Assembly: GCF_964355755.1 (NCBI RefSeq)
Contig: NC_092671.1
Coordinates: 29,270,104-29,334,103 of the forward strand
Length of the DNA: 64,000 bases
From: Antedon mediterranea
Taxonomy: Eukaryota; Animalia; Echinodermata
Direction: 5' to 3'
Below the pieces are notes generated by a model that was not told the DNA's origin, did not search any database, and was given only the letters and a program-made list of their open reading frames with translations. Position numbers and translations under genes: made by a program. Every line of letters begins with the position of its first letter. Position 1 is the first letter of the stretch. Shown here piece by piece: positions 9,599 through 9,640 of this stretch.

Positions 9599-9640
<42 letters not shown>
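9599..9640 (+). other. 42-bp perfect copy of the 28S R2-target/helix 69 sequence in the spacer
   Basis: AGCGCGGGTAAACGGCGGGAGTAACTATGACTCTCTTAAGGT, identical to uninterrupted 28S (e.g. 17685-17726). Confidence 0.95.

Follow-up and report, generated by a model that had tools for sequence, protein, structure and literature searches.

The rDNA array and its spacer copies

The window, by which is meant the whole 64-kb stretch of Antedon mediterranea DNA analysed here, consists of 45S rDNA units arranged in tandem, among which Rfam places six LSU genes. Each of the complete spacers lying 3' of a 28S gene (6/6) carries a 42-nt sequence that is exact 28S and extends from -41 to +1 of the site nicked by the retrotransposon R2. 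A pattern search with this 42-mer gave 12 matches in the window, with 0 expected (100 shuffles), which comprise the six exact spacer copies, five exact sites within 28S genes and a further 28S site, at 8010, that is split after -1. The features concerned are the following:

9599..9640, + strand: spacer copy of the R2 target from -41 to +1 in unit 1, with the RUM and RASIN nick motifs inside (pattern search; motif definitions from the literature)
19092..19133, + strand: spacer copy in unit 2 (pattern search)
28620..28661, + strand: spacer copy in unit 3 (pattern search)
43684..43725, + strand: spacer copy in unit 4 (pattern search)
53188..53229, + strand: spacer copy in unit 5 (pattern search)
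62646..62687, + strand: spacer copy in unit 6 (pattern search)
17685..17726, + strand: intact native 28S R2 site, taken as the reference (pattern search, Rfam); the others are at 27177, 42255, 51768 and 61239
9656..9683, + strand: T run of 28, a probable Pol I termination/release element
9494..9547, + strand: 9-mer tandem array, the copy number of which differs among units

An earlier note on this DNA had described an exact, same-strand 42-bp copy of 28S in all six spacers, foreign from +2 onwards and set between the 9-mer array and the T run, and these points were borne out by the pattern search and by inspection of the sequence. The copies lie 223-286 bp beyond the ends of the LSU genes (Rfam boundaries, n=6) and 1339-1402 bp downstream of the native R2 nick. 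The gap between copy and T run is fixed at 15 nt, and the T run itself is 28-29 long. The 42-mer is the sole rRNA-derived run of more than 12 bp in the spacers of units 1 and 2, the two of the six that were scanned. As RNA, it includes LSU helix 69. The 9-mer array has 5-12 copies per unit when counted in one phase; a derivation of its unit from helix 69 was considered and rejected, since 787/3000 shuffles were equally good.

An assembly artefact is unlikely, given the same position in six units and the word shares of 0.82-0.93 in four sequencing runs of organism A, which may be the source sample itself. This word search employed 28 words, at least half of which were contained in 7 of the 20 runs listed. 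The word shares of other listed runs, 0.18-0.29, are near the level expected from the 28S end, the native 28S site and the 9-mer array and so say nothing for or against the copy, and the share of 0.68 in organism B is compatible with the copy being either present or absent. Comparison of four runs with positions 9110-9590 yielded just four contigs of 32-39 nt, all on the 9-mer array (X5, X8 and X11; none from X10), and the gaps between them are uninformative. The 9-mer array was also seen as short high-depth contigs in the runs of organisms B and C.

The surroundings of the copy are as uniform as the copy itself. In the six units, one distinct sequence each was seen for the 117 nt that follow 28S, the 50 nt that precede the copy and the 15 nt on its other side, and an alignment of the 3' spacers has a single substitution column in 487 columns. 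The perfection of the copy in 6/6 units thus merely reflects homogenisation of the array and is no sign of selection. When five uninterrupted 28S genes are aligned (noted for 39728-62396), substitutions occur in 12 columns and gaps of 5 bases at columns 2708-2712 and 3542-3546, which possibly mark defective units.

The 18S gene of unit 4 is interrupted by an AT-rich insertion of 5,557 bp (33215-38771) with 14-bp perfect terminal inverted repeats, a 4-bp target duplication, internal repeats of about 650 bp and no ORF of 100 aa. An R2/R8-like element was rejected on account of the terminal inverted repeats and the lack of such an ORF; the insertion resembles a non-autonomous DNA transposon, putatively of the Chapaev/CMC type. 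To our knowledge, DNA transposons in rRNA genes have rarely been reported.

R2 at the native site and its predicted behaviour at the copy

The split 28S site carries the following insertion:

8051..8259, + strand: R2 insertion at the canonical nick site of 28S, truncated from its 5' end down to the 3'UTR (sequence, comparison with R2-1_ABif)

This 209-bp insert lies exactly between -1 and +1 of the 28S nick, is accompanied by no target duplication and has no match elsewhere in the 64-kb window. Two 12-mers of the insert occur once each in the supplementary tables of PMC13188248 that were searched, both in the row of R2-1_ABif, a feather-star R2 of lineage A (Table S2), and the same is true of two 28S words of the window, so that the 28S flanks printed for R2-1_ABif share words specific to the window. 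This points to a host that is a crinoid or close to one. Compared by eye, the insert and R2-1_ABif have a homologous core, which may be the protein-binding pseudoknot, and differ in the first half and the last bases of the insert. Judged from these comparisons, 8051-8259 is an R2 3'UTR related to, and diverged from, R2-1_ABif; its dissimilarity outside the shared core suggests that feather stars have a second R2 family, or else that the host is a related one. The protein printed for R2-1_ABif begins with three zinc-finger-like motifs (by eye) and two groups of echinoderm R2s are placed in the three-finger branch (PMC13188248), and the R2 of the host group is therefore likely to be of lineage A.

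The array thus holds an R2 insertion alongside six empty spacer copies, as the earlier note had stated. The support for a decoy that it had drawn from this did not stand, since the occupancy of 0/6 spacer copies against 1/6 28S sites has a one-sided chance of 0.5 and makes the empty copies uninformative.

For the silkmoth R2 protein, the RUM (-34..-22) and RASIN (-6..+1) motifs have been defined, T+1 being essential and +6..+37 dispensable for nicking and priming (PMC10499050). The RUM anchor bases and the essential RASIN bases, as defined for silkmoth, are kept in the spacer copy at their native spacing. The N-terminal domains of lineage-A proteins contact upstream DNA only, and ZF3-2 requires -40..-21 (PMC11204384); with its left end at -41, the copy contains this duplex. 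Relative to the canonical 28S target (PMC10499050, PMC11204384), the copy is identical from -41 to +1, with all defined determinants of binding and of the first nick at native spacing. Unlike that target, it belongs to the 3' spacer, in each of the units, and is foreign from +2, so that the 4-nt priming match required by avian lineage-A proteins is lost (PMC11371274). Avian lineage-A proteins require 4-nt pairing of the rRNA tail with the nicked primer (PMC11371274, PMC12180492), and off-target sites of R2 match the tail (PMC12222951). Measured against this avian requirement, one of four bases of the copy matches in register, or three of four if the nick slips by one. A lineage-A R2 protein is accordingly predicted to bind and nick the copy and to prime reverse transcription poorly; given the loss of the 4-nt match, such a protein may reasonably be expected to bind without inserting productively. 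The lineage-D protein of the silkmoth needs no tail match (PMC10499050, PMC11371274) and would be predicted to use the spacer copy.

Junctions of the copy and comparison with other systems

That the spacer copy is linked to R2 is well supported. The prior for a 42-nt piece of 28S to end within 1 nt of the R2 nick is about 0.0008, R2 is present at the same site in this array, and published R2 contacts account for where the copy ends on either side. The flanks of the copy hold two further features:

9642..9655, + strand: right junction, likely a templated repair insertion (computed on the identical unit-2 sequence)
9472..9487, + strand: out-of-order scraps of the R2 upstream site, of 6 nt (-16..-11) and 8 nt (-37..-30), possibly older junction debris

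Within the right junction, bases 9642-9647 repeat 9591-9596 of the left flank in inverted orientation, and bases 9647-9653 repeat the nick end (9635-9641) directly, such that a 7-nt direct repeat overlaps a 6-nt inverted repeat and 12/14 bases at 9642-9655 are locally templated. The direct repeat has P 0.001-0.003 and the inverted repeat P 0.005-0.019, and both jointly were found in 0/50,000 draws in each of three null models; all of these figures are generous because the repeats were seen before they were tested. Synthesis-dependent end joining typically leaves bases templated from nearby sequence, and the right junction has the appearance of a repair scar. The pair of scraps at 9472-9487, 110 bp upstream of the copy, has P 0.004 in Markov shuffles, likewise tested after being seen.

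Two other readings of the right flank are weaker than that of templated repair. Taken as decayed 28S from +2 to +9, 9642-9655 has P 0.05-0.18, and no decayed 28S homology is seen upstream of the copy. Taken as a decayed R2 5' start, it agrees with that of R2-1_ABif in 11/14 columns (by eye); six of the seven nulls gave P 0.014-0.037, and the 209-nt pool gave 0/5000. A direct repeat of spacer sequence flanking the copy was also sought and rejected, just one 6-mer being found.

The R2 5'-junction duplications described in PMC3774820 likewise consist of upstream 28S that stops at the nick and has reiterated scraps close by. Mostly 13-26 bp long, they adjoin the native site in tandem and are joined to an R2 body, whereas the spacer copy is 41-42 bp, lies 1.35 kb away, is free-standing and occurs in all units seen. 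The downstream-join junctions of PMC13486585 resemble the copy in lying about 1 kb past the nick, near a probable transcription end; they were made by an engineered avian protein in human cells and contain the insert and about 1 kb of duplicated rDNA, neither of which is retained by the spacer copy, which is inherited. R2 families with a 28S-like 3'UTR and shifted 5' junctions (PMC5035012) are a further case in which 28S of the target region was captured by R2 activity, the 28S-like piece being within the element there and within a host spacer here.

The occurrence of such copies elsewhere was surveyed in environmental sequences. A narrow motif for the 28S end gave 0 metagenome loci, and a broader one gave 32, from 31 contigs falling into 16 clusters, in which the 28S end is animal-like and is followed by 49,524 bases in all; in prokaryote genomes the broader motif gave 0. 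Eleven of the 32 extend to the next 18S. A spacer copy of the R2 site was present in 0/32 loci, exact identity to the R2 region extending over 11 nt at most, as against 42 in the window's own spacer; as the R2 status of these loci is undefined and none is known to be from an echinoderm, this shows merely that the copy is not universal. Other rRNA pieces were observed in their spacers, namely a 70-bp inverted copy of the 18S 5' end at 81% in L001 (1759-1828, or 1668-1737 in the 28S sense), pattern matches to the 28S 3'-end motif in L002 (2), L013 (5) and L016 (3), and an 82% copy in L015.

The literature compared includes PMC13580325, PMC10946416, PMC10257491, PMC5035012 and bioRxiv 10.64898/2026.06.09.731232. 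A butterfly spacer R2, listed as such in PMC10946416, was rejected as a precedent because its source (PMC10257491) clusters it with 28S elements. The earlier note had asked for a literature check on novelty; the literature searched, which comprised more recent open-access papers and bioRxiv main texts, yielded no account of an R2 site fixed in the spacer or of such a decoy, and the fixed copy is probably undescribed.

Origin of the spacer copy

The 42-mer is best explained, at a probability of roughly 0.55, as a scar made by R2 and fixed by concerted evolution. An R2 protein would have nicked the 28S site, and the junction, instead of forming there, would have been resolved some 1.35 kb further downstream, at a break close to the T run, and would have brought upstream 28S with it. 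The R2 body and any duplicated 28S would have been lost afterwards, end joining with short templated synthesis would have closed the right side, and concerted evolution likely then spread the scar of this single event, an integration or a cut by R2, through the array.

Several of these steps have published counterparts. R2 junctions often bear duplicated or reiterated upstream 28S, of which sea-squirt examples are printed (PMC3774820). When second-strand nicking fails, avian R2 5' junctions are found about 1,000 bp downstream, within the region transcribed by Pol I, and breaks near termination have been offered as a speculation for such junctions (PMC13486585, 2026). The position of the spacer copy, at 1339-1402 bp compared with about 1 kb, is consistent with such joining, the T run being the putative transcription end. 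The resemblance of the right junction to a repair scar favours the first alternative named in the earlier note, an old R2 5'-junction scar spread by concerted evolution. The copy is not, however, a classical 5'-junction duplication, being neither in tandem with the native site nor attached to an R2 5' end. Neither an R2 body nor a duplicated 3' part of 28S adjoins the copy in the window sequence, so that a further, non-homologous deletion has to be postulated. At -41, the left end falls outside the range of ribozyme cleavage in R2 5' junctions, -9 to -36 (PMC3774820), and fits the protein footprint (-40..-21), which would also be expected under selection for binding. Any spacer copy without substitution relative to 28S must be young, converted or selected.

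Selection of the copy as a decoy or as a nick site, the two taken jointly, appears doubtful. As a decoy, which is unlikely, the copy, however it arose, would be a site kept by the host once per unit where R2 binds and nicks but seldom inserts, soaking up R2 particles and sparing 28S. Such a role would suit the native spacing of the RUM anchors and the essential RASIN bases present in the copy, the sole contact of lineage-A proteins with upstream DNA including -40..-21 (PMC11204384), the match of the copy to 1/4 of the priming bases in register where avian lineage A needs all four (PMC11371274) and the three zinc fingers carried by R2 of the host group (PMC13188248). Selection gives no measurable signal here, the flanks being as invariant as the copy, and R2 nonetheless entered one of the six 28S sites; at a ratio of 1:1 and equal affinities, simple arithmetic allows the load on 28S to be halved at most. 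Cut sites also tend to be lost by conversion. A one-base slip of the nick would restore 3/4 of the priming bases, the lineage-D R2 of the silkmoth needs no priming match at all (PMC10499050, PMC11371274), and the copy is absent from the 32 environmental animal-like loci, albeit loci of undefined R2 status. Of the decoy proposed in the earlier note, the link to R2 is well supported and the prediction of binding without insertion reasonable for a lineage-A protein; host selection, for which it had invoked the perfect and empty copies, does not gain support from them.

More improbable still is a co-opted break site, at which R2 would nick the spacer copy without insertion and the extragenic breaks would help to restore or homogenise rDNA copy number. 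Recovery of rDNA copy number in Drosophila is driven by breaks of the R2 endonuclease (PMC10266012), the copy is predicted to be nickable yet poor in priming, and a repair-type junction lies at the nick. The right junctions are nevertheless identical in 6/6 units, which gives no sign of ongoing cut-and-repair, and the second nick of avian R2 is normally stimulated by cDNA synthesis (PMC13486585).

There is slightly less to be said for a role in RNA or termination apart from R2 control, in which the copy would form a transcribed helix-69 hairpin within a stem of its flanks or would bind a terminator protein beside the T run. Its spacing of 15 nt to the T run is constant and the flanks are able to pair around it, in a duplex matched in stability by 50-71 of 3000 base shuffles; the templated inverted repeat, however, explains this pairing. 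Folding z-scores on the + strand, from -0.09 to -1.14 for 9580-9655, 9586-9652 and 9599-9640 and +0.80 for 9549-9660, are not significant, and the end at the R2 nick is left unexplained. Known terminator proteins, moreover, bind downstream of the T run and not upstream.

Least probable is capture independent of R2, whereby a piece of 28S taken by chance, or cut by a piggyBac-type TTAA element or homing endonuclease, was copied and fixed, since the rRNA pieces of other spacers (28S ends in L002, L013, L015 and L016, inverted 18S in L001) show that such pieces occur but derive from gene ends and never from the R2 site, R2 is the only such element seen at this site in the window, and the prior of ending at the nick is about 0.0008.

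An R2 scar fixed by concerted evolution thus remains the preferred reading, and no host function is required or shown for the spacer copy. R2 has resided in animal 28S genes over hundreds of millions of years, and the means by which hosts keep it in check are an open question. It may be proposed, tentatively, that animal rDNA arrays repeatedly fix, beside the terminator of each unit, a half-site that R2 can bind and nick but hardly use, serving as a DNA-encoded trap that draws R2 away from 28S or as a harmless source of recombination breaks which maintains the array. A target half-site fixed in every unit would be one of two things: an inherited trace, the first of its kind, of the downstream-join pathway lately described in cultured cells, or a means built into the host of controlling a site-specific retrotransposon. 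A natural site predicted to bind R2 without priming also has implications for how specific R2-based tools for gene insertion are.
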